Of a stretch of DNA of 64,000 nt, positions 8,641-63,700 are shown in pieces. The position numbers and the translations under genes were made by a program. The notes under the pieces are model-generated. The model was not told the DNA's origin and searched no databases. It worked only from the letters and a program-made list of their open reading frames with translations. The stretch comes from a bacterium (GTDB lineage Bacteria > Patescibacteriota > Andersenbacteria > UBA10190): the NCBI GenBank assembly GCA_030698495.1, contig JAUYKA010000005.1, forward strand, positions 8,404 through 72,403, in the 5' to 3' direction. The stretch's first letter is position 1. Each line of letters opens with the position of its first letter.

Positions 8641-9124
8641 AAGCCTTAGTATCGAGAATATAACACAAGACCGTATCAGCTGCCATAAATAAAATTAGGC
8701 CGCCGTTATCTGCCAAGTATCGCGATCCCCCCAGGAATCAATGCGACTCGACAAACAACGACGGCCAAAAGGGCCAAGATTCTCGCTTCGCCTTTTGACT
8801 TCACCGCGTGAAAACCGGACTGTCTCTTGGCATCCCTTTTACCTCCAACTTTAGGGTTTAGGGTGCACAGGCCAGGGGATCGCGGTACGGCTGTCGGGTG
8901 ACTTCCCCGACATTCAAACCGTTACCCGCGCGCCCGGGGGCCGCCGTCAGGAGGTCGTCGCGCAATAAGACCTTTTCTCGAGCTTCCCTCGCATACGCGC
9001 TCCTTCCTGCCAGGGCAACTAGATAGCCACCCGGCAAAGAGACAGAAAAAGAGAACAACTAACTACCCGTTTTATAGTACCTATTGACACACGAGTCAAT
9101 AGTCACATAAAAAATTAACGAGAA

Positions 9125-9230
9125 ACTCAAAATGAAAAACTCAAATTAACAAGATAAAACCAAAAACAGTTGCGGCAGTTTTGCCTTTTGCGTTGTTATT
9201 TTGAGTTTTTCGTTTTTAGTTTTTAGTTCT
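9125..9230 (-). terminator. Long AT-rich imperfect hairpin (AAAAC-repeat family) 3' of murJ
   Basis: Arms GAAAAACTCAAA...CAAAA and TTTTG...TTTGAGTTTTTC. Confidence 0.4.
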
Positions 9231-19837: not shown

Positions 19838-20350
19838 GAAGACAGGTGAATGGCCGCTCTTTGTTCAAAGTTCGAGGCAACCCCTTAGGGGTTTACCCTG
19901 AGCTTGTCGAAGGGAGGAAAGTCCGGACACCTTATTGATCTTTTTCAATAAACGGGTGGCAGATAACGTCTGCCCGGAGCAATCCGAGGGACCGATACAA
20001 AATGGATAGATAGACACACGTGTATATCTATTTAATCGGCCAAGAGTGCAACAGAAACATACCGCTTTCACCCGCCGAAGCTTTACGCGAAGGCGGGCTA
20101 GTCCACTTCTTGTGGAGAGTAAGGTTGAAATCGTGAGGCCCGCCTTCGCGCGGGATACCCCTCGCTTCGGCGAGGCAAAGTAAGAGCTCACGCGGCCGCG
20201 CGGCAACGCGCGGACGGGGCAAGCCCCACCCGGTGCAACCTCAAGCAATTCCGCCTTAAAACGGAATAGGTAGAGGGCAAGAGGCGTACGGCGACGTGCG
20301 TCCCAGATAGATGGCCATTCCAGACAGAATCCGGCTTACAGCCTGTCTTC
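19838..20350 (+). ncRNA. rnpB: RNase P RNA (bacterial type A-like), about 513 nt with insertions
   Basis: P4 strands GGAGGAAAGTCCGGACACC (5') and ACAGAATCCGGCTTAC (3'). P1 pairs GAAGACAGG with CCTGTCTTC. Conserved blocks AGTGCAACAGAAAC and GGTAAGGTTGAAA are present. The region has no ORF and is GC-rich. Confidence 0.8.
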
Positions 20351-20409
20351 AAAAAAACCGCCCAGATTTTTGTCTGAGCTGTTTTTTTATGCCAACCAAA
20401 TAGATAATT

Positions 20410-23077: not shown

Positions 23078-23854
23078 CTATTTAAACCTCTCAAAGTACT
23101 TGTCAATTTCTCCTCTTAACTCAATGCCAACTCTTTCAAAACAATCTAATAGGTTCTTATAAGCATTTTTACCACCTAGAAAATCCCAAAATTCATCAGC
23201 AACCTTAAGCTCATTGGGTAAATCCAACATTCCTCTCATGGTCCAACGATTATAAGCCTGCGGTTCATATGGATTATATGGAATAGCAATATAAGTATGT
23301 ATGGATGCCTTCGGTCTTTCTACTAATATTACAGCAACCCATTCTAGTAGTGTGCGCTTGAATTCCTTAAAACCACCTGCATTTGGTTTCGCTGTTTTTA
23401 TATCAAAAAGATAGTAGTCGTCATTACCAGATTCAACCATTAGGTCTACTCTCGTTGGTTTAACATCTACTATTTTACCTTTTTGGCAAACTTTTCTTAT
23501 ACGCTCAATTTCCTTTTGTTTATCGGGTGAAACACTCGCAGTAGTCAGCCCGTCGATAATTTTCTGGATTTCAGTTTGAGCTTCACTGCTTATCTGATGC
23601 CCCACAATCACTTGTGACTCAGCCTTTTTGAAGTTTTTTTGAGCCAAAGCTAAACCAACTGGTTCAAAAATACTTGTTCCGAAATTTGTATTTAATGAAT
23701 GAATAAAAGAGTATAGAGCTAATCTATCCTTACCAAGTAATCTAGTATGGAATGGCATAACCGCCGGCTCTGGTTTGTAGTTCTGAAACTTGTTTCTAAG
23801 ACTAGTCTTTAAAACCTCCTCGACTTCCTTAATTTGTTTATTTGATATAGACAT
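23078..23854 (-). CDS. Putative type II restriction endonuclease (TdeIII-like family, tentative)
   Basis: 258-aa protein whose start lies 1 nt from the stop of the DNA methyltransferase gene. Low-GC region. Family assignment is from memory of RE_TdeIII-like motifs, not from a search. Confidence 0.45.
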   Translation of the reverse strand: MSISNKQIKEVEEVLKTSLRNKFQNYKPEPAVMPFHTRLLGKDRLALYSFIHSLNTNFGTSIFEPVGLALAQKNFKKAESQVIVGHQISSEAQTEIQKIIDGLTTASVSPDKQKEIERIRKVCQKGKIVDVKPTRVDLMVESGNDDYYLFDIKTAKPNAGGFKEFKRTLLEWVAVILVERPKASIHTYIAIPYNPYEPQAYNRWTMRGMLDLPNELKVADEFWDFLGGKNAYKNLLDCFERVGIELRGEIDKYFERFK

Positions 23855-23855
23855 A

Positions 23856-25442
23856 CTAAATTTGCTTGAGATGAAAAATTATCTCTGAATATGGGTTTCT
23901 GTCACGCTCTGTTCTATTTAAAACCGGCCGCTTAAATCTATTAACTATTTCCATACCCGCTTTTTCTGCAATAGAAGGATATAAGTCATATTTATCATTT
24001 GCAACCAGGAAAACATTGCGGTCGTTTGCCAAATACTTTTTGCAGTTGTTTAAAACAAAAGCAATACCTTCAACGTATGACATTCTAGCTTCCGCACCTT
24101 GTCCTCTATATAAGGGGCCAATTTCATATTCGTCCCTGCGCTCAAAGCCAAACAAATCATAAGCATAGGCATGCTGCTCATGATAATCAATCTGACCAAC
24201 ATAAGGCGGCGAAGTAAAAATACCAGCAATTTTCTTCTTCTGCAAAATTCCATACAGTGTTTTATTTCTCTTTTTCACTTCCTTAAATATATCAACTTGT
24301 CTCGAATCTGCCGGAAGAATAGCATAGTGACTACCTGTTTTTAGATTGTCATATGTTTTGAGTCGATAGACAGTATCAGTTGCGTAACGATCAAACCAGG
24401 TTTTTATAGAAAACAATGGCTTACAAATTTTCTTATGCTTCCAACAATAATAAGTGGCCAGTTGCGGTTCTTTTAGTGTCGCTAAATCCGAGTGGGTCGT
24501 AGCACGACACGACCTAATGGTCCTGCTTAAAATCACTGCTAATATCTTTTTGTTTTTTATATCCGTTACTTTCTTAACCAAATCAAAAGCATAATCAATC
24601 TCTTTTCTAACTCCGTTAATATACCACCTATCAAGAAATGTATTTGTTCCTTTTTGCTTTAACTCAATACTATACTTCTTAATTTGACGCTTATAAACAC
24701 TCAAAAATTCTTTTTCTTTTTCCTCTGCATACTGTTTCTCATTAATCTGTCCCCTGTTTACCTTGTATTTATACTCAGGGCTTGGAAAATACTTATTATT
24801 AAATACAGCCAACTCATTTAGTAGCTCATTTTCAAAAGTGGACATCATACTATCATTTTCATATCCAGCTATTAAGGTTTTAATCTTATCAACATCCTTA
24901 TCTAAAAGGTTAAAATCATAATCCAGCAGCTTAGTCTCCGTAACCATACAGTTAAAGTGCGATATATCTACACCAATCGCATGAATACCCATTTCGTTAG
25001 CCTGAACTAATGCTGTTCCCGAACCGGAAAACGGGTCAAGAACCACGTCTCCTTTTTTAAAATAAACATCCTTTTTGAAATCATCAGTATGGCCATCTAA
25101 AAAATATTCAACCAACTGCGGAATAAACTTACCTTTGTACGGATGAAGTCGATGAACATGTTTAGTCGTGTCTTTTTCACGAAGATGATCAAAAGACAAT
25201 GACCAATTCAAATCGTTGCCCAAACGTTTTTTATACACTAACTCCCGCTTCCCACGAAATGATTTATAGTAGCGCTCAAGATCAGTAACGCTGACATATA
25301 CACCACTTTCGTTAACCCTTTTCTTTACTTTTCCGTACTGAATTAAGTAAGAAATATTAGACTCGCTTATATCTCTTTCTAAAAAATCACTAGCCCATCG
25401 ACTAGCTTCCATAAGAGTTAATAATTTCGTGTTGCCATTCAT
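23856..25442 (-). CDS. DNA methyltransferase (alpha-class amino-MTase; SPPY motif suggests N4-cytosine or N6-adenine)
   Basis: Motif I DPFSGSGT and motif IV TSPPY, separated by about 290 aa (alpha-class order). Confidence 0.8.
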   Translation of the reverse strand: MNGNTKLLTLMEASRWASDFLERDISESNISYLIQYGKVKKRVNESGVYVSVTDLERYYKSFRGKRELVYKKRLGNDLNWSLSFDHLREKDTTKHVHRLHPYKGKFIPQLVEYFLDGHTDDFKKDVYFKKGDVVLDPFSGSGTALVQANEMGIHAIGVDISHFNCMVTETKLLDYDFNLLDKDVDKIKTLIAGYENDSMMSTFENELLNELAVFNNKYFPSPEYKYKVNRGQINEKQYAEEKEKEFLSVYKRQIKKYSIELKQKGTNTFLDRWYINGVRKEIDYAFDLVKKVTDIKNKKILAVILSRTIRSCRATTHSDLATLKEPQLATYYCWKHKKICKPLFSIKTWFDRYATDTVYRLKTYDNLKTGSHYAILPADSRQVDIFKEVKKRNKTLYGILQKKKIAGIFTSPPYVGQIDYHEQHAYAYDLFGFERRDEYEIGPLYRGQGAEARMSYVEGIAFVLNNCKKYLANDRNVFLVANDKYDLYPSIAEKAGMEIVNRFKRPVLNRTERDRNPYSEIIFHLKQI

Positions 25443-37029: not shown

Positions 37030-37141
37030 AGTTGAGTAGAATTAAGAATCATGAATAAAGAATACAATATACTTAATTTACTGTCCTCGCCTTGTCCTCC
37101 GTAGCTTCATGCGAAGGATGGGCTGTATTTACTGTATTTAC

Positions 37142-41758: not shown

Positions 41759-41956
41759 AATAAACAGATCTTATATTTAACCTGTCAGATAATTTCCAAT
41801 TTTCAATTCTCAATTTTCATATAAACGCCAATGCCCCAATTACCAAATCCTGATACAACGACCGCGTCTTTGTGTCTTGGTCATTGTAATTTATATGGAA
41901 ATTGGAAATTGATCATTGAAAATTTTATTACATACAAAACAACCATTGCGTTAGTT

Positions 41957-43155: not shown

Positions 43156-43270
43156 GAAATTAACGTAAAATTAAAAACTAAAAACGTAAAACAACAACGT
43201 AAAAACCAAAAGACTGACGACGTTAGCGATATGGTTGTTTTTACTTTTGAGTTGTTGCTTTTCGTTTTTC
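43145..43270 (-). terminator. AAAAC-repeat hairpin family, 3' of map
   Basis: Arms of about 50 nt; shares CGTTTTTCACTTTAAGTTTT with the copy at 45045-45172. Confidence 0.45.
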
Positions 43271-44116: not shown

Positions 44117-44206
44117 GAATCAAGACTATCCTCCTTCCCCACCCACCATCCTCTCTACTCTTAATGAGTAATATGCCTTTAATCAACCAAATAGGCAAAG
44201 TCAGTA

Positions 44207-44372
44207 CCAACAAACGATACTCACGGCGCCCGTGCATGAGGGACCGTCTCAAGGCTTGCCGGCCTGGTCTCCGCCTTTAGGCGGAGCGGCAAGCCTTGAG
44301 TCGAGTGCCGCCCGCCGCTGGGGCGGGCAAAGGTGTCACTCATGTGCGGGTGACGGGAGTATCGTTTGTTGG
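44207..44372. repeat. Family E element, copy 4 (between map and adk)
   Basis: Same core; the outer stem is CCAACAAACGATACTC...GAGTATCGTTTGTTGG. Confidence 0.7.
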
Positions 44373-44381
44373 CAACAATAA

Positions 44382-45044: not shown

Positions 45045-45172
45045 AAATAAAAGTTAAAAACTAAAAGCGAAAAACAACAACGCAAAAATAAAAACAACTA
45101 CGCCGACGTCGGTCTTTTTGCTTTTGCGTTGTTGTTTTGCGTTTTTCACTTTAAGTTTTACGTTTACGAAAA
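45045..45172 (-). terminator. AAAAC-repeat hairpin family, 3' of secY
   Basis: GCGAAAAACAACAACGCAAAA pairs with TTTTGCGTTGTTGTTTTGCG; shared motif CGTTTTTCACTTTAAGTTTT. Confidence 0.45.
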
Positions 45173-46465: not shown

Positions 46466-46603
46466 ATATTTAAACTAATACTACAATTCCCAATGCACAA
46501 TTTCCAATTTCCATATAATACCCAATGCACAATAATCAAATATCAAATAGTGTCGTTATTGTATTGGGAAATTGGCTATTGATTATTATATGAAAATTGA
46601 AAA

Positions 46604-47047
46604 TTACGCGATTATCTCCACTTTACCGCCCGCTTTCTCCACCCGCTCCTTGGCCGCTTCGCTCACACCATGAACCCTGACAGTCAGCTTCTTATCTACT
46701 AACCCGGACACTATCAACTTGACCCGATCGGACCGACCCGAAATCCAACCAAGCTTTTTCATTTGTCCCGGTCCAACCACCGTTCCGTCATCAAACCTTT
46801 GTAATTGTCCCGTGCTTACCGTTAATACCCGTACTCTCTTTTTGGTCATGCGATGTTTTGTCCCTCTGCCTTTCGGCAAACGCATATACAAAGGCGTTTG
46901 CCCGCCTTCAAAACCAAGCTTGCGGCTGTAACCGGCTCGCGAGCGCTGTCCCTTCATCCCTCGTCCCGACTTGGCTCCCCGCCCGCCAATACCGCGGCCA
47001 ACCCGCTTTTTCCGCTTAACAATTTTTGGTAACTCGTGTAAAAACAT
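46604..47047 (-). CDS. rplO: Ribosomal protein L15
   Basis: Conserved sequence; position in the spc operon. Confidence 0.9.
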   Translation of the reverse strand: MFLHELPKIVKRKKRVGRGIGGRGAKSGRGMKGQRSRAGYSRKLGFEGGQTPLYMRLPKGRGTKHRMTKKRVRVLTVSTGQLQRFDDGTVVGPGQMKKLGWISGRSDRVKLIVSGLVDKKLTVRVHGVSEAAKERVEKAGGKVEIIA

Positions 47048-48986: not shown

Positions 48987-49016
48987 AATAATTTGAAGAT
49001 TGAAAATTGATATCTG

Positions 49017-49202: not shown

Positions 49203-49366
49203 ACCTAGTATATCAACATCACCCAGCGACGCTCATAAGCTTGCCGCCTGGGGATTGCTGTTAAGATTAAGTTAAACGTATTCATAAGCTCGTTTTGCTG
49301 ATTATGACCGCGCGCTGCATTCAAGGCAAGCTTGGGCGATGTTGTATTACTAGGCATGAAATTATC
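49203..49366 (-). other. 164-nt ORF-free structured spacer between rpsZ and rplE, closed by an imperfect stem of about 28 bp
   Basis: CCTAGTATATCAACATCACCC...AAGCTTGCC (49203-49244) pairs with GGCAAGCTTGGGCGATGTTGTATTACTAGG (49324-49353). Confidence 0.5.
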
Positions 49367-50322: not shown

Positions 50323-50360
50323 CTTATTAGCTTATCTAGCTTATTAACTTATCTCGCCAA

Positions 50361-50732
50361 TTACCAAACTTCGGGCGCCAACGAAACTATCTTCTGATAA
50401 CCCCCATTGCGCACTTCCCGGGCGATAGGCCCAAACACACGCGTTCCTATTGGCTCCTTGCTTTCCTTTTGCAGTATTACCGCCGCGTTATCGTCAAACC
50501 GAATTGCCGATCCGTCTTTCCTCTTTTCCTCTTTGCTGGTACGAACAATTACAGCACGCACTACATCGCTCTTTTTTACTGCTCCCCTCGGTTCGGCTAT
50601 TTTTACTGTTACTACCACAATATCACCCAAATATGCATACCGGCGGCCGGTATTGCCCAACACCCGAATCACCTGCAGCAACTTGGCTCCGGTATTGTCT
50701 GCGACACTCAACATTGTCCGTTCATGTACCAT
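50361..50732 (-). CDS. rplN: Ribosomal protein L14
   Basis: Conserved sequence. Confidence 0.9.
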
Positions 50733-50875
50733 ATATACTTATCTCGCTTATCAACTTATCTTACTTTGCCCGCCGGCCGTGTCCCTCCGTAGCCTTGTGC
50801 GGAGGGGGACCGTGTCCCTCCGTAGCCTTGTGCGGAGGGGGAAGCTTTAGCGAAGGCTGGGCTTATCTCGCTTAA
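50733..50875 (-). repeat. Intra-operon repeat element, copy 1 (GATAAG-repeat leader plus tandem-duplicated hairpin TCCCTCCG-N10-CGGAGGGA plus a segment encoding DKPSLR-stop)
   Basis: Near-identical copy at 53117-53235. Its distal end supplies the last 6 codons and the stop codon of rpsQ. Confidence 0.7.
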
Positions 50876-51137
50876 CCACCACCCAGCGCTTCCGAGCGGA
50901 TAGTGGCCTCGATTCTCTTATCATCACCTTATCGCCCGCTTGACACTCGTTCTGCTCGTCATGTGCCAGATATATTTTGGAGCGCAAACGCCGCTTTTGA
51001 TACATACTGTGGACTTCCACGGTTTCTACCTGAACAGCCACCGTTTTATCTCCGGACTTTTTTGTCACCACGCCCGTTAGCGTCTGTCTTCTTCCCGACG
51101 ACACCGGTTCTTGTTTTGTTTCTGCTTGTTTTGACAT
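50847..51137 (-). CDS. rpsQ: Ribosomal protein S17
   Basis: Conserved OB fold; the C-terminus DKPSLR is encoded by the repeat element. Confidence 0.9.
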   Translation of the reverse strand: MSKQAETKQEPVSSGRRQTLTGVVTKKSGDKTVAVQVETVEVHSMYQKRRLRSKIYLAHDEQNECQAGDKVMIRESRPLSARKRWVVVKRDKPSLR

Positions 51138-52541: not shown

Positions 52542-52579
52542 ACTTTATTATTTGAAAATTGATAATTGAAAATTGTTTG

Positions 52580-53116
52580 TTATCCTTCTCCCATCGACTT
52601 GCGCCGATAGGATTTATGCGCATCGCCACCCTGCTGCGGCATTCTTTTTATATTACGCACATCCTTCTGTTTTTCTTTTACTTCGGATACTTCTTTACTC
52701 GGCGTCTGCCCGGCAACAAAATCTTCAGCGGCTATGGTTTCGATCTGACTCTTCTTTCCCTTCCTGGCCGCCCCTTTGGCCACGCCGATTTCTTCCAGCA
52801 CCACCGTCACGTGGGCAGTCCGCTTTAAAATCGGATGGGCCGATCCTTTACTGGCCGGTTGGGAACGCTTCATCACAAAACCGCCGTCCACTACCATATC
52901 CGCTACTCCCAGAGAGGCTTCTTCGATAGAATAATTATGTTGGGCGTTTGCCATCGCGCTGCGCAATACATTTCCCACTAAGTCGGCTGCTTTCCCCGGC
53001 ATAAACTCAAGCTGCGCTCTAGCCTCCACCGCCGACAAGCCAACAATTGCCTCACGAATCAATCGCAGCTTTCTCGCCGCTATCCTGGCATTCTTATGTT
53101 GTGCTTTTACTTCCAT
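52580..53116 (-). CDS. rplV: Ribosomal protein L22 (with a charged C-terminal extension of about 60 aa)
   Basis: Conserved L22 core. Confidence 0.85.
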   Translation of the reverse strand: MEVKAQHKNARIAARKLRLIREAIVGLSAVEARAQLEFMPGKAADLVGNVLRSAMANAQHNYSIEEASLGVADMVVDGGFVMKRSQPASKGSAHPILKRTAHVTVVLEEIGVAKGAARKGKKSQIETIAAEDFVAGQTPSKEVSEVKEKQKDVRNIKRMPQQGGDAHKSYRRKSMGEG

Positions 53117-53235
53117 ATGCTTATTATCTTATTTACTTATCTCGCTTATTAACTTATTTTACTTTGCCCGCCGGCCGTGTCCCTCCGTAGCCTTGTGCGA
53201 AGGGGGAAGCTTTAGCGAAGGCTGGGCTTATCTGC
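53117..53235 (-). repeat. Intra-operon repeat element, copy 2 (ATAAG x5 leader plus hairpin plus DKPSLR-stop segment)
   Basis: See copy 1. Supplies the C-terminal DKPSLR and the stop codon of rpsS. Confidence 0.7.
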
Positions 53236-53544
53236 CGCCGGCTTTATCGCCGCAGCTGCGGCGGCCGCCATCTCCGCCTCTTTCTGTATGCGTCCACCAT
53301 GTTTAACAAACTTGCGTGTTGGCGAAAATTCTCCCAGTTTATGCCCTACCATTTCCTCAACTACCAGCACTTCCACGTGTTCGCGTCCGTTGTGCACGCC
53401 AAACCTGAAACCGACCATTTCTGGATATATCGTAGAGGAACGCGCCCAGGTTTTTATAACCGTACGATCACCGGCTTTTAGACGCTTAACTTTGGCTAAA
53501 AGTTTCGGTTCAATGTATGGTCCTTTTTTGGTTGATCTAGACAT
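53212..53544 (-). CDS. rpsS: Ribosomal protein S19
   Basis: Conserved sequence; the C-terminal AADKPSLR is encoded by the repeat. Confidence 0.9.
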
Positions 53545-53566
53545 AATTTAGAAATTGAAAATTGTA

Positions 53567-56128: not shown

Positions 56129-56382
56129 AACAAACTGAACATTATTTAAACAAAAAACCACTCACCTTAAAACCGAGAGGTTTTTATCTAGCTATCAGAC
56201 ATGACCGCGTACTGTTTACCCTGAGCGAGCGAAGCGAGTCGAAGGGCCCCCTCGACAACCCTCAATCACCAGGCGTACATCATCCGCGACTAATCTAAGG
56301 CTGGTTATACTATAAATAATCCTGCCCAAAAACGCAAATTTATTCCTCTACTTCTCAAAGCGAAAAGTTGTTTCTGTCCTTC

Positions 56383-56739: not shown

Positions 56740-56786
56740 GCAGTTCGAGTTACAAGTTCCAAGTTATAAGTTATAAGTTATGAGTT

Positions 56787-57980: not shown

Positions 57981-58218
57981 ATGTTTGTTGCTTTTAATAA
58001 TAATCAAAAAACCCTCCGACGTTTCAGCCACCCGCCTATTTTGCGCCGCAAATATTGACAGGCGTCGAGGTTACCTATTTTGTAACACAAGCCGTTTTAA
58101 ATGTAAACACCTTTTTTCAGTATCCTAAACCCTCACTATTCTGGCACACCACACTCAATCAATTATTGAAAAAATAAAAATTAAATGGAAATTGAAAATT
58201 GATAATTGAAAATTGTAT

Positions 58219-58715: not shown

Positions 58716-60821
58716 TTACTTACCCCTGCCTGTCTGCTTTAAGCCGACAATCTCGTCCTGGATATTCTTTGGCACACCTTCGTAATGATCAAACTCCATC
58801 GAATATATCGCCCGACCGGAAGTCAGTGAACGTAACGCCGTAGCATAACCAAACATTTCCGCCAACGGCACCGTCGCGTCAATTACCTTGATGTTACCCC
58901 TGTCTTCAATGCTATTTATTTGTCCGCGTCTGGAATTAACATCTCCCACCACATCGCCCATGTGCTTCTCCGGCGTTGTCACCTCGATTTTCATAATCGG
59001 CTCCAGCAATACGGGACTGGCTTTCTTAAACGCCGCGCGAAAGGCCATCGAACCGGCAATCTTAAAGGCAATTTCCGAACTGTCTACTTCATGGTAGCTG
59101 CCGTCAAAAGCGATGGCTTTCACGTCAACCACCGGGTATCCGGCCAGCACGCCGTTATTAGCCGCTTCATTTACCCCTTTACCGATAGGTGTAATATACT
59201 CCTGCGGTACCGTGCCTCCTTTGATTTGACTCTCATACTCAACCCCGGCGCCACGCTCTTGCGGCTCCAGCCTTAGCCACACATGACCATACTGACCACG
59301 GCCGCCGCTCTGTTTGATGTATCTCCCTTCCGCTTCGGCCACTTTGCGAATGGTTTCCTTGTACGCCACCTGCGGTTTTCCCACATTAACTTCCACCCCA
59401 AACTCTCTCTTCAACCGATCGGCAATAATTTCCAAATGCAGCTCACCCATCCCCTGCATAATCGTCTGCAAAGTTTCTGCGTCCGTTTTCACGCGGAAAG
59501 TGGGATCTTCACTCTGCAAAGCCTTCAACGCCATACCCATCTTTTCCTGATCCGCTTTAGTCCTTGGTTCCACCGCGATGGAAATAACCGGCTCCTGCCC
59601 CACAATGCGTTCCAGTAAAATCGGCTGGTCCTGGTCACACAAAGTATCGCCGGTAGTTGTATTCTTCAAGCCAACCAGCGCGCCGATTCCGCCCGCGCCG
59701 ATTTCTTTCACATCTTCGCGATCATTGGAATGCATCCGCAATATGCGGCTGATTCTTTCTTTTCTGCCATTGGAAGCGTTAAGAACATACGATCCGGAAG
59801 TTAACCTGCCCGAATAAACACGAAAATATGTAATTTGTCCGACAAAAGGATCGGTTGCCACCTTAAACGCCAGCGCCGCAAACGGTTCATTATCTTCCGG
59901 TTTTCTTTGGAGTTTCACTTCGTGGTTGTCCGGATCTGTTCCTTCCACCGGCGGCAAATCCATCGGCGACGGCAGATAATCAACAATCGCGTCCAAAACT
60001 AACTGCACCCCTTTATTCTTCAAAGCCGAACCGCACAACACCGGCACCACCTCGCCCTTGATAACCGCCCGGCGCAATACTGCCTTCAGATCATCAATCA
60101 CCATCTCCTCTCCGTTTAAGAATTTCTCAATCAAAGCTTCATCAAAACCGGCGATCTTCTCAACCGTCTCATCTCGATATTTAGCCGCTTCTTCTCTTAA
60201 TTCCTGCGGAATATCCTTCCACACAACTTTTTCTCCTTTTTGTCCTTCAAAATACACCGCCTGATTGCGCAGTAGATCCACCACTCCTTCCAGTTTGTCT
60301 TCTGTCCCGATCGGTATATTCATGATCACTGTTTTGTCCGTCAGTCGCTCATGAATCGACCCTACCGCCTTCCAAAAATCCGCTCCGGTTCGGTCCAATT
60401 TATTGATAAAACACATGCGCGGTACCTGATACTTATCCGCTTGACGCCATACTGTTTCACTCTGCGGCTCTACTCCCGCCACACCGTCAAACACCACTAC
60501 TGCTCCATCCAAAACACGCAGACTACGCTCTACCTCTACGGTGAAATCAACGTGCCCCGGCGTGTCAATCAAATTCAAGCGATGCCCCTGCCAAAAACAG
60601 GTGGTTGTCGCTGACGTAATGGTAATGCCGCGCTCCCGTTCCTGTTCCATCCAGTCCATCACCGCCGCGCCTTCGTGCACCTCACCGATTTTGTGTGTTA
60701 AGCCGGTATAAAAAAGCACTCGCTCCGATACGGTGGTTTTACCGGCGTCAATGTGGGCAATGATACCGAAATTTCTTACTTTTTCGATAGTAACACTGGG
60801 AAATTGTTTTAAGTCACTCAT
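58716..60821 (-). CDS. fusA: Translation elongation factor G
   Basis: AHIDAGKTT and DTPGH motifs; 701 aa with five domains. Confidence 0.95.
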
Positions 60822-60946
60822 ACTATCAATCTTTAATTTCCAATTTCCAATTTCCCCACGCGAATAGCGTCGTTTCGTCGTGTTTGCTAATTGTAAATTG
60901 GCAATTCAATGGAAATTGAAAATTGTAAATTGGAAATTTTAGCTAC

Positions 60947-61420
60947 TTACGCAAAGTGGCTAAATGCCCGGTTCGACTCCGCCATCCGATGCACATCGTC
61001 GCGCTTCTTTATCGCCGCGCCTTCCTTATTGGATGCCGCGATAATTTCCGCTGCTAACTTTTCCGCCATACTTTTGCCGGAACGATTGCGCGCCGCGTCC
61101 CGCAGCCAGCGCATCGCCAATGTCTCTTTCCTGTCCCCGCGCACTTCAATCGCCACCTGATAATTCGCCCCCCCTATACGCCGCGCTTTCACTTCCAAAA
61201 CCGGCGATACGTTTCTTATCGCGTTATCAAATACCAGTAGGGGATCGTTTTTTGTCTGCGCCGAAACCAATTCCAAGGCATCATAAACCACTTTTTGCAC
61301 CGTGTTTTTTTTACCACCCTTCATCAGATGATTGATGAATTTGGACAACATCAAATTACCGAACTTCGGATCCGGCTTTAAAAACTTTTTATTCTTATAG
61401 ACTCTTTTACGTCGCGGCAT
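60947..61420 (-). CDS. rpsG: Ribosomal protein S7
   Basis: Conserved sequence. Confidence 0.9.
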   Translation of the reverse strand: MPRRKRVYKNKKFLKPDPKFGNLMLSKFINHLMKGGKKNTVQKVVYDALELVSAQTKNDPLLVFDNAIRNVSPVLEVKARRIGGANYQVAIEVRGDRKETLAMRWLRDAARNRSGKSMAEKLAAEIIAASNKEGAAIKKRDDVHRMAESNRAFSHFA

Positions 61421-63208: not shown

Positions 63209-63700
63209 GTTCTCTATAAAGAGCTCCGTTTTCACCATCCACAACGAGCCGTATGAACGGCGGCTTTGTAGTAGCCCCACCTCACCAATGCCTTCACCCG
63301 ACAGGCGCGCTGGAAAACCAGACACCATAAAGTGAAGTCTCTCACCTTCTTCACCGCACGGCGCATCCGCTTCAACTCCCACTCTGACCGCTCCACCGGA
63401 CCAACCCTGTATGCTCTTTCTTTCATCGCCAACCCCTTCCCTGAAAAAGAACAAGAAACCGTTTCTGTCGCAATTACTGAACGAAGCTCGAACCTTTTTT
63501 GAACAAAACTCTGACTGATTGCCGCGCTTCGCGCGGCAGAAACTGAACGCTCCGCCTGCGTTGAAACTTCGGCGGACAAGTCGGGCGGGCAAAAAGGAAG
63601 GGGGTTGGGGGGGAAGGAATTTTTGCCCGCCCTCGCTTTCCGATTCCGATTTTTCCGCCGCCGCTGAATTTCGTGCCAGTGAAACTGGCGCGCCGCACCA

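Follow-up and report, generated by a model that had tools for sequence, protein, structure and literature searches.

The 64-kb stretch of DNA analysed here, hereafter the window, comes from a Candidatus Andersenbacteria genome and includes its S10/spc ribosomal-protein cluster. Two spacers of this cluster, one between the genes for S17 and L14 and one between those for S19 and L22, hold repeat segments. The identities of S17, S19, L14, L22 and L24 were confirmed with Pfam, and the coordinates and sequences of the segments given below are all read on the minus strand. The first-pass annotation had described near-identical elements in the two spacers that furnish both upstream proteins with a shared DKPSLR ending and stop codon, and this description is borne out. 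The segments are 98% identical over 59 nt and 93% identical over 83 nt, and the 21-mer GATAAGCCCAGCCTTCGCTAA occurs exactly twice in the 64 kb (50847-50867 and 53212-53232; expected 0), forming the 3′ end of the S17 ORF (...VVVKRDKPSLR-stop) and of the S19 ORF (...DKPSLR-stop). For rpsQ (50847-51137, minus; 96 aa), the Pfam S17 domain ends at residue 89. For rpsS (53212-53544, minus; 110 aa), the Pfam domain ends at residue 82 and is followed by an Ala-rich tail typical of the lineage. In both genes the last six codons and the TAA stop (50847-50849 in S17, 53212-53214 in S19) are encoded by the repeat.

Downstream of both stop codons the order of parts is the same: AGCTT, one or two 33-nt units, CCGGCGGGCAAAGTAA, which follows the hairpin unit in both segments, and an ATAAG array. 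The core of the first copy, in the S17-L14 spacer (50761-50867, minus), is composed of an array unit, the arms of an outer hairpin and two nested 33-nt units. It begins with the GATAAG array unit (50862-50867), followed by the outer 5′ arm and the start of the loop, CCCAGCCTTCGC-TAA-AGCTT (50842-50861), then by the nested hairpin unit TCCCCCTCCGCACAAGGCTACGGAGGGACACGG (stem CCCTCCG/CGGAGGG) in 2.0 exact tandem copies (50777-50842), and ends with the outer 3′ arm and tail CCGGCGGGCAAAGTAA (50761-50776). The first nested stem begins 8 nt past the S17 stop. An ATAAG array (GATAAGTTGATAAGCGAGATAAG) plus TATAT (50733-50760) then reaches the L14 start codon at 50732. The core of the second copy, in the S19-L22 spacer (53159-53232, minus), has the same GATAAG, outer 5′ arm and TAA-containing loop, a single nested 33-nt unit (53175-53207) and the outer 3′ arm CCGGCGGGCAAAGTAA (53159-53174); its array, five units plus CAT (53117-53158), reaches the L22 start codon at 53116. 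The hairpin motif CCCTCCG-N10-CGGAGGG, reported earlier as tandem in the first copy, is found three times, at 50783-50806 and 50816-50839 within the exact tandem and at 53181-53204, where a single C>T change in the stem retains a G-U pair.

The ATAAG arrays have a period of 8/9 nt. Three units lead up to the start codon of L14, five to that of L22 and four to that of L24, and no such array was found on the minus strand of the window beyond these three spacers. The L14-L24 spacer agrees with the earlier description of an ATAAG-only version: it is filled by GAGATAAGTTAATAAGCTAGATAAGCTAATAAG (50323-50360, minus), with the array itself at 50323-50352, and has no hairpin module.

Repeat-induced mis-joins during assembly or binning might in principle have made both spacers. 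Assemblers do break at the hairpin repeat, and a Logan contig terminates 8 nt past the S19 stop, as contigs tend to do at repeats. Against an artefact, the identical sequences, including the exact 2 × 33-nt tandem, are present in contigs with different, independently set boundaries from NCBI MAG GCA_034372665.1, which encodes proteins identical to those of the window, and the flanking reading frames are all intact and collinear with those of relatives. An artefactual origin is therefore hardly credible.

Comparison with relatives places the segments as insertions in this lineage. None of the 119 closest S19 proteins ends in DKPSLR, nor does any of 74 S17 relatives, whose tails were reconstructed from 74 related loci; convergent native tails were rejected as an explanation on these counts, and the suggestion that the ending is lineage-specific holds. 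All 119 S19 proteins have an Ala-rich, variable C-terminal extension, the closest ending in ...TAKPAAPAAK as against ...DKPSLR in the window, and the S17 tails in the 74 loci consist of 2-16 variable residues after KRW. The spacers themselves differ in length. In the two nearest relatives with available DNA (S19 84-85% identical), the S19-L22, S17-L14 and L14-L24 spacers measure 4-9 nt, as against 95, 114 and 38 nt, respectively, in the window, and in ~80 Patescibacteria loci the same spacers are mostly -4 to 30 nt. The absence of the tail from relatives, together with their 4-9-nt spacers, identifies the segment as a lineage-specific insertion, and sequence comparison thus shows the operon segments to be inserted repetitive DNA.

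Whether the native C-termini were replaced, as initially proposed, is a separate matter. The insertion itself is upheld by the short spacers of relatives, whereas replacement and extension by a few residues fit the protein lengths equally, as the total lengths of S17 and S19 fall inside the range of their relatives. When the segment between the two AGATAAG repeats of the S19 copy is removed in silico, the gene reads ...AAG CCG GCG GCA GAT AAG TAA, then ATAAGATAATAAGCAT, then ATG, that is, a natural ...KPAADK-stop end with a 16-nt spacer. Removal of the segment between the AAGCGAGATAAG repeats of the S17 copy leaves no in-frame stop before L14.

The piece that encodes KPSLR and the stop proved to be a hairpin in its own right, ~35 nt long and GC-rich, with a conserved 14-nt loop TTCGCTAAAGCTWC. 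The TAA within this loop is the stop codon of both S17 and S19. The 21-mer AAGCCCAGCCTTCGCTAAAGC, which encodes KPSLR-stop, has matches in seven metagenome contigs, in unrelated contexts and mostly near contig ends, where the sequence that follows runs ...AAAGCT[A/T]CGGCGGGCAAGC. Relative to these metagenome copies, the operon segments contain the same hairpin, interrupted after AAAGCTT by an insert of 33 nt in the S19 copy and 66 nt in the S17 copy, and the inserted 33-nt unit is a diverged member of the same family (CCCTCCGCACAAGGCTACGGAGGG versus CCTTCGCTAAAGCTACGGCGGG). The hairpin noted earlier is a second family member, nested in the loop of the outer one. The earlier view that the last six residues and the stop derive from the same repetitive DNA also calls for refinement: the DKPSLR tail is chimeric, DK coming from an ATAAG array unit (GAT AAG) and PSLR-TAA from the outer 5′ arm and conserved loop.

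The family consensus is a C-rich 5′ arm (CCAGCC, CCCGCC, CCATCC or TCCGCC), the conserved 14-nt loop, which can be written TTCGCTAAAGCT[A/T]C, a complementary 3′ arm and then CAAG. Modules span 33-39 nt with a GC stem of 6-7 bp. Across 14 copies, stem pairing is 85.7%, with changes on both sides at three of the six pairs, a level that exceeds slid controls and most shuffles. The family could not be matched to any Rfam family or to published REP tag classes.

Further copies had been called for as a check on a purely local origin, and the KPSLR-stop module was found at three more sites in the window as well as in other organisms. Beyond the seven metagenome contigs, two further copies lie in IMG/VR contigs and a diverged copy occupies the S10-L3 spacer of a related locus (L009), so that the generic hairpin is present outside the window in nine unrelated metagenomic or viral contigs and one related genome. 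The GC content of the contigs carrying the foreign copies varies between 0.39 and 0.63, and the UvrD helicase on one of these contigs marks it as Azambacteria-like, so that the family extends across CPR lineages at the minimum. A covariance model built from the foreign copies only recovers both operon copies and three more in the window (E = 4e-4 to 5e-3, values that should be read as rough), bringing the window to five family loci and three nested units in 64 kb. The first of the additional members, CCCATCC-TTCGCATGAAGCTAC-GGAGGAC (37089-37128, minus), lies in sense orientation in the 112-nt spacer between a pfkB-family kinase gene and gap, with GTAAATACAG-type short units on either side. The second, CCCGCC-TTCGCGTAAAGCTTC-GGCGGG (20071-20097, minus), is antisense within the RNase P RNA gene (19838-20354, plus), as an insertion at the tip of a helix that we take to be P12 from the flanking consensus ...ACCGC/...GUAAGGNUGAAA. 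The third, the diverged TCCGCC-TGCGTTGAAACTTC-GGCGGA (63544-63582, plus), is part of a cluster of GC-rich hairpins, and the NCBI MAG contig JAXMKP010000061 terminates at it. Assemblies thus break at family copies, which are found in both orientations and in unrelated contexts, and the matches together show both the dispersal of the hairpin and its family membership.

The searches also set bounds on this dispersal. In ~550 kb of relatives' operon regions, L009 alone had a member. The exact nested hairpin gave no match in genome, metagenome and viral contig collections, and a longer version of the element's 5′ part gave none in viral contigs. Blastn of the generic hairpin against plasmids returned chance-level matches only, and six-frame translations compared with 5.8 billion protein clusters revealed no ORF overlapping the other element copies at E ≤ 10.

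In our preferred reading, the two segments are probably copies of one composite selfish repeat, in which a REP-like dispersed hairpin, itself nested, sits within ATAAG arrays. The nested insert is common to both copies, as are the left junction AGATAAG|CCCAGCC and the array on the right, ...[G/A]ATAAGTT[G/A]ATAAGCGAGATAAGTA, and together these argue that the composite arose once and not through independent insertions of a simple hairpin. The core is the ~35-nt GC-rich hairpin, with its variable, covarying stem and conserved 14-nt loop TTCGCTAAAGCTWC, lodged inside an array of the 8-9-nt ATAAG units peculiar to three spacers of this operon. A diverged second family member (33 nt) is inserted in the loop of the first, as a single unit in the S19 copy and as a tandem pair in the S17 copy. 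The composite would then have been copied to a second spacer 2.4 kb away, most likely by recombination or gene conversion between ATAAG arrays. We infer this route from the similarity between the copies, which ends within ATAAG units on both sides, and from the core-less array in the next spacer. With the left junction at the 3′ ends of the genes in the frame GAT-AAG-CCC-AGC-CTT-CGC-TAA, both ORFs read DK and then PSLR and stop at the TAA of the loop. The tails themselves are probably tolerated, nearly neutral by-products: in all relatives S17 and S19 end in short extensions that vary, and two of the three frames into the element meet a stop within seven codons. Plausible consequences of the insertion are that a terminating ribosome has to open the nested stem, which begins 8 nt past the stop codon, and that the increase in stop-start distance from <10 nt to ~100 nt weakens termination-reinitiation coupling. 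The C-poor ATAAG array, being unable to pair with itself, may keep the next start codon unstructured and so let L14 and L22 initiate without tight stop-start coupling. Against the reading stand the lack of any further match to the exact composite in the collections searched, the lack of a transposase among the window ORFs scanned that could account for mobility, and the missing in-frame stop before L14 when the S17 segment is removed.

Transposition of the composite with duplication of AGATAAG is the main alternative to array recombination or gene conversion. The arrays and hairpins together would then be the mobile unit, having moved independently to both sites by targeting and duplicating AGATAAG, and the array-only L14-L24 spacer, like the short-unit arrays generally, would be a footprint of insertion and excision. 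The boundaries of the copies are compatible with such a process: both are bounded on the left by AGATAAG and on the right by ...GAGATAAG, the copy at 37089-37128 has ACAGTAAAT at either flank, and the 8-9-nt period of the arrays is the size of many target-site duplications. These flanking repeats are, however, units of the surrounding arrays, and so are expected with or without a target-site duplication. A Pfam scan of most of the window's 72 ORFs of at least 90 aa detected no transposase or RAYT domain, and a third composite copy is absent from the window and from all genome, metagenome and viral collections searched, where the exact composite was matched nowhere outside the two spacers. Typical MITEs are also larger than the 35-nt module. 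On balance, we regard independent transposition of the composite as improbable.

The proposed composite selfish repeat can be set beside several known classes. REP elements are 20-40-nt GC-rich imperfect palindromes with dispersed copies and a GTAG/CGTC tag at one end (PMC3733652). The modules described here, at 33-39 nt with a 6-7-bp GC stem, have the size and palindromic form of a REP. As with the REP/BIME elements of Proteobacteria (PMC3733652), they are short and GC-rich, with dispersed copies, here five loci in 64 kb; most follow a coding region in a spacer between co-directional genes, either orientation is seen, some copies are clustered or intragenic, and transcription as an RNA hairpin is plausible. 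They differ in that the unpaired GTAG/CGTC end tag is absent, the sole GTAG lying inside the loop on the complementary strand (GTAGCTTTAGCGAA), and in that conservation resides in the 14-nt loop and not in the stem. Many REP families are confined to one species, whereas copies of this hairpin are nearly identical between different CPR lineages and viral contigs. The window ORFs scanned include no RAYT gene. The element resembles a REP or a very small MITE, but the missing end tag sets it apart from REPs as strictly defined by the tagged superfamilies.

MITEs such as Correia/NEMIS in Neisseria and ERIC in enterobacteria offer a second comparison, as non-autonomous repeats found in or beside genes and in one another and transcribed with their neighbours; their co-transcribed hairpins can be substrates of RNase III or RNase E and alter transcript levels (PMC10969869). 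The present module is smaller, at ~35 nt, and has no clear terminal inverted repeats beyond the hairpin. No unambiguous target-site duplication or related insertion sequence was seen in the 64-kb window, the AGATAAG that flanks both composites and the ACAGTAAAT that flanks the 37089 copy both being units of the arrays around them. Rickettsia palindromic elements (RPEs) are palindromic repeats that sit in frame in unrelated genes, with the resulting proteins tolerated (PMC10969869). As with RPEs, the repeat here would be read as part of its host protein, since the predicted S17 and S19 ORFs run into it and stop at its TAA. RPEs are nonetheless ~100-150 bp long and contribute an internal peptide, whereas this element sits at the extreme 3′ end and contributes six residues and a stop.

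A different view holds that selection maintains the element as a cis-regulatory RNA dedicated to the S10/spc operon, with the shared tail as a side effect. It could act as an attenuator, as an RNase processing or stabilising hairpin, or as an uncoupler of L14 and L22 translation from that of S17 and S19. Some features speak for this view. Both copies are in sense orientation between cistrons, and in E. coli the S17/L14 site is where the S10 and spc operons meet. Only 8 nt separate the stop codon from the nested stem, and REP hairpins within ~15 nt of a stop are said to affect translation of the upstream gene in E. coli (reportedly the work of Liang, Rudd and Deutscher in 2015). The sole stem difference between the copies preserves a G-U pair, and another family member lies in the spacer of a glycolytic operon.

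Other observations count against a dedicated regulator. None of the relatives examined has the element in its orthologous spacers, which are 4-30 nt long. No U-tract follows the hairpins on the transcribed strand, ACACGG... and AAAGTAAGATAAG following instead, and the terminator scan gave nothing at the element, with counts from the terminator and promoter scans at chance level. Rfam searches returned no match at the element, either for the whole window at the gathering threshold or for a 3.1-kb region at E ≤ 10. Although hairpins are predicted, the stability of the RNA fold shows no excess over shuffled sequence (z = +0.7 to -1.7). The same hairpin is antisense in the RNase P RNA and occurs in unrelated organisms and viral contigs. 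Intrinsic terminators, attenuators and ribosomal-protein leaders resemble the element in placing a GC-rich stem-loop in or between ribosomal-protein cistrons. The element departs from these classes in having no U-tract on the transcribed strand, neither conservation at orthologous positions nor an Rfam leader match, and further copies in non-ribosomal contexts. The attenuator or processing role raised in the first-pass annotation is thus unsupported, and we consider a dedicated cis-regulatory RNA unlikely.

A selected function of another kind also deserves consideration. The hairpin might be an undescribed functional RNA or DNA module, for example a recognition hairpin for a conserved nuclease, recombinase or RNA-binding factor, a reading that we regard as doubtful. 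It is compatible with the conserved loop UUCGCUAAAGCUAC, the covarying stem and the near-identity across CPR lineages and viral contigs, and it also fits the placement in RNase P P12 and in intercistronic spacers of highly expressed operons. The short-unit arrays (ATAAG, GTAAATACAG) would then be insertion footprints or platforms for translation re-initiation. Both composites and two other members lie between co-directional genes of highly expressed operons, a location that counts against the selfish-repeat reading in that it could reflect selection for function and not tolerance.

Repeat DNA has given two ribosomal proteins identical C-terminal tails and stop codons, a mechanistically ordinary but tidy example. 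It shows that a streamlined CPR genome may be colonised by repeat DNA even in its most conserved operon, and that two essential ribosomal proteins can have their C-termini and stop codons rewritten by it in an identical way. It also brings to light a newly identified hairpin repeat family with a conserved loop, found in more than one CPR lineage. Our literature search found no papers on repeats in Patescibacteria ribosomal-protein operons; taken with the other spacer elements of the window and of other Patescibacteria described below, the finding suggests that expanded spacers are a recurrent, unstudied feature of these operons. The conservation of the loop across lineages and the recurrence of unrelated elements in ribosomal-protein spacers are the points that could raise the significance of the finding. 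There is also a practical caution for genome work: assemblies of marker-gene operons are interrupted at such repeats, and proteins that serve as phylogenetic markers acquire lineage-specific 'tails'.

Enlarged spacers, 70-210 nt long, also occur in the S10/spc clusters of several other Patescibacteria (L053/L055, L070, L018, L048, L009, L020, L021 and L068). They hold elements that are repeated within their own operon and unrelated in sequence to the window element. In two Moranbacteria (L053/L055; 7451-7562 and 7927-8031), near-identical 103/110-nt elements occupy the S17-L14 and L14-L24 spacers, and other Patescibacteria spacers contain long palindromes of TAGAAAT, AGCTTC or TACGAA units. 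Colonisation of ribosomal-protein operon spacers thus appears to be recurrent in Patescibacteria.

Within the window, the 164-nt L5-S14 spacer (49203-49366, minus) folds as one long hairpin (z = -3.4), at whose base the S14 start codon region (GGUAUGG) pairs with CAUGCC just past the L5 stop. Its arms (ATGCCYAGTAATACAAC and GTTGATATACTRGGTATG) and some internal motifs are shared with the L22-S3 spacer of a distant member of the Patescibacteria (L018, 5398-5548); it is a second spacer element conserved across genomes, in different spacers. The S10-L3 spacer (56162-56382, minus) is unusually long, at 221 nt in the window and 365 nt in L009 (1464-1828). It contains GC-rich hairpin-like segments, for example GTCGAGGGGGCCCTTCGAC and CTCGCTTCGCTCGCTCAGGG, and its counterpart in L009 holds the member of the hairpin family mentioned above.

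Two ~175-nt GC-rich elements, in the adk/map spacer (44200-44375, minus) and in the spacer between a HAD-like and a cytidylyltransferase-like gene (1262-1435, minus), have one nested-stem architecture in common, although their sequences are very different. Of the 39 pairs predicted by RNAalifold, 9 show compensatory changes, and CCAGCGGCGG, TCGACTnAAGC, a YAAA-loop hairpin and AGACGGTC are among the unpaired motifs that are conserved. They gave no Rfam match and were not found in the other loci compared; we regard them as a candidate structured RNA or structured mobile element.

Short-unit arrays other than ATAAG are also found in many of the operon spacers, at 56740-56786, 53545-53566, 52542-52579, 48987-49016, 46466-46603 and 58032-58218. 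(CAATTTT/CAATTAT)n directly follows the stops of orf148, L2, L22, S14 and L15, and the tuf-S10 spacer holds (AACTTAT)n, in which CTTAT is ATAAG in reverse complement. Few operon spacers have a Shine-Dalgarno-like GGAG. Long AT-rich intergenic palindromes built of 7-nt units form two families, (CCAATTT/CAATTTT)n...(GGAAATT)n and (AAAACNN)n...(NNGTTTT)n, each with at least three copies in the window (41783-41932, 46499-46605 and 60810-60949; 9117-9228, 43167-43262 and 45050-45159), the L15-secY and secY-adk spacers being among these sites.

The RNase P RNA (19838-20354, plus) is 517 nt long as against a 367-position model, enlarged by sizeable insertions in its first hairpin and P12 and by two of 60 and 48 nt in other helices; the insertion in P12 corresponds to the hairpin-family member. 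Two of the foreign copies lie beside tRNA-like sequence. In L088 (2270-2470), the generic hairpin is ~45 nt downstream of a tRNA-Leu gene, on the opposite strand, and is followed by TTGTTTTT, where it resembles an intrinsic terminator. In the viral contig L094 (12030-12110), it comes directly after the tRNA-3′-end-like GGTTCGAGCCC...CCACCA; ARAGORN called no tRNA in L094, and the window is likewise without any. Nearly all of the window's 72 ORFs of at least 90 aa lie on the minus strand, and the window also encodes a TdeIII-type restriction endonuclease with a DNA methylase (23081-25442), Fic, RadC and a protein of the 23S-rRNA-IVS family.
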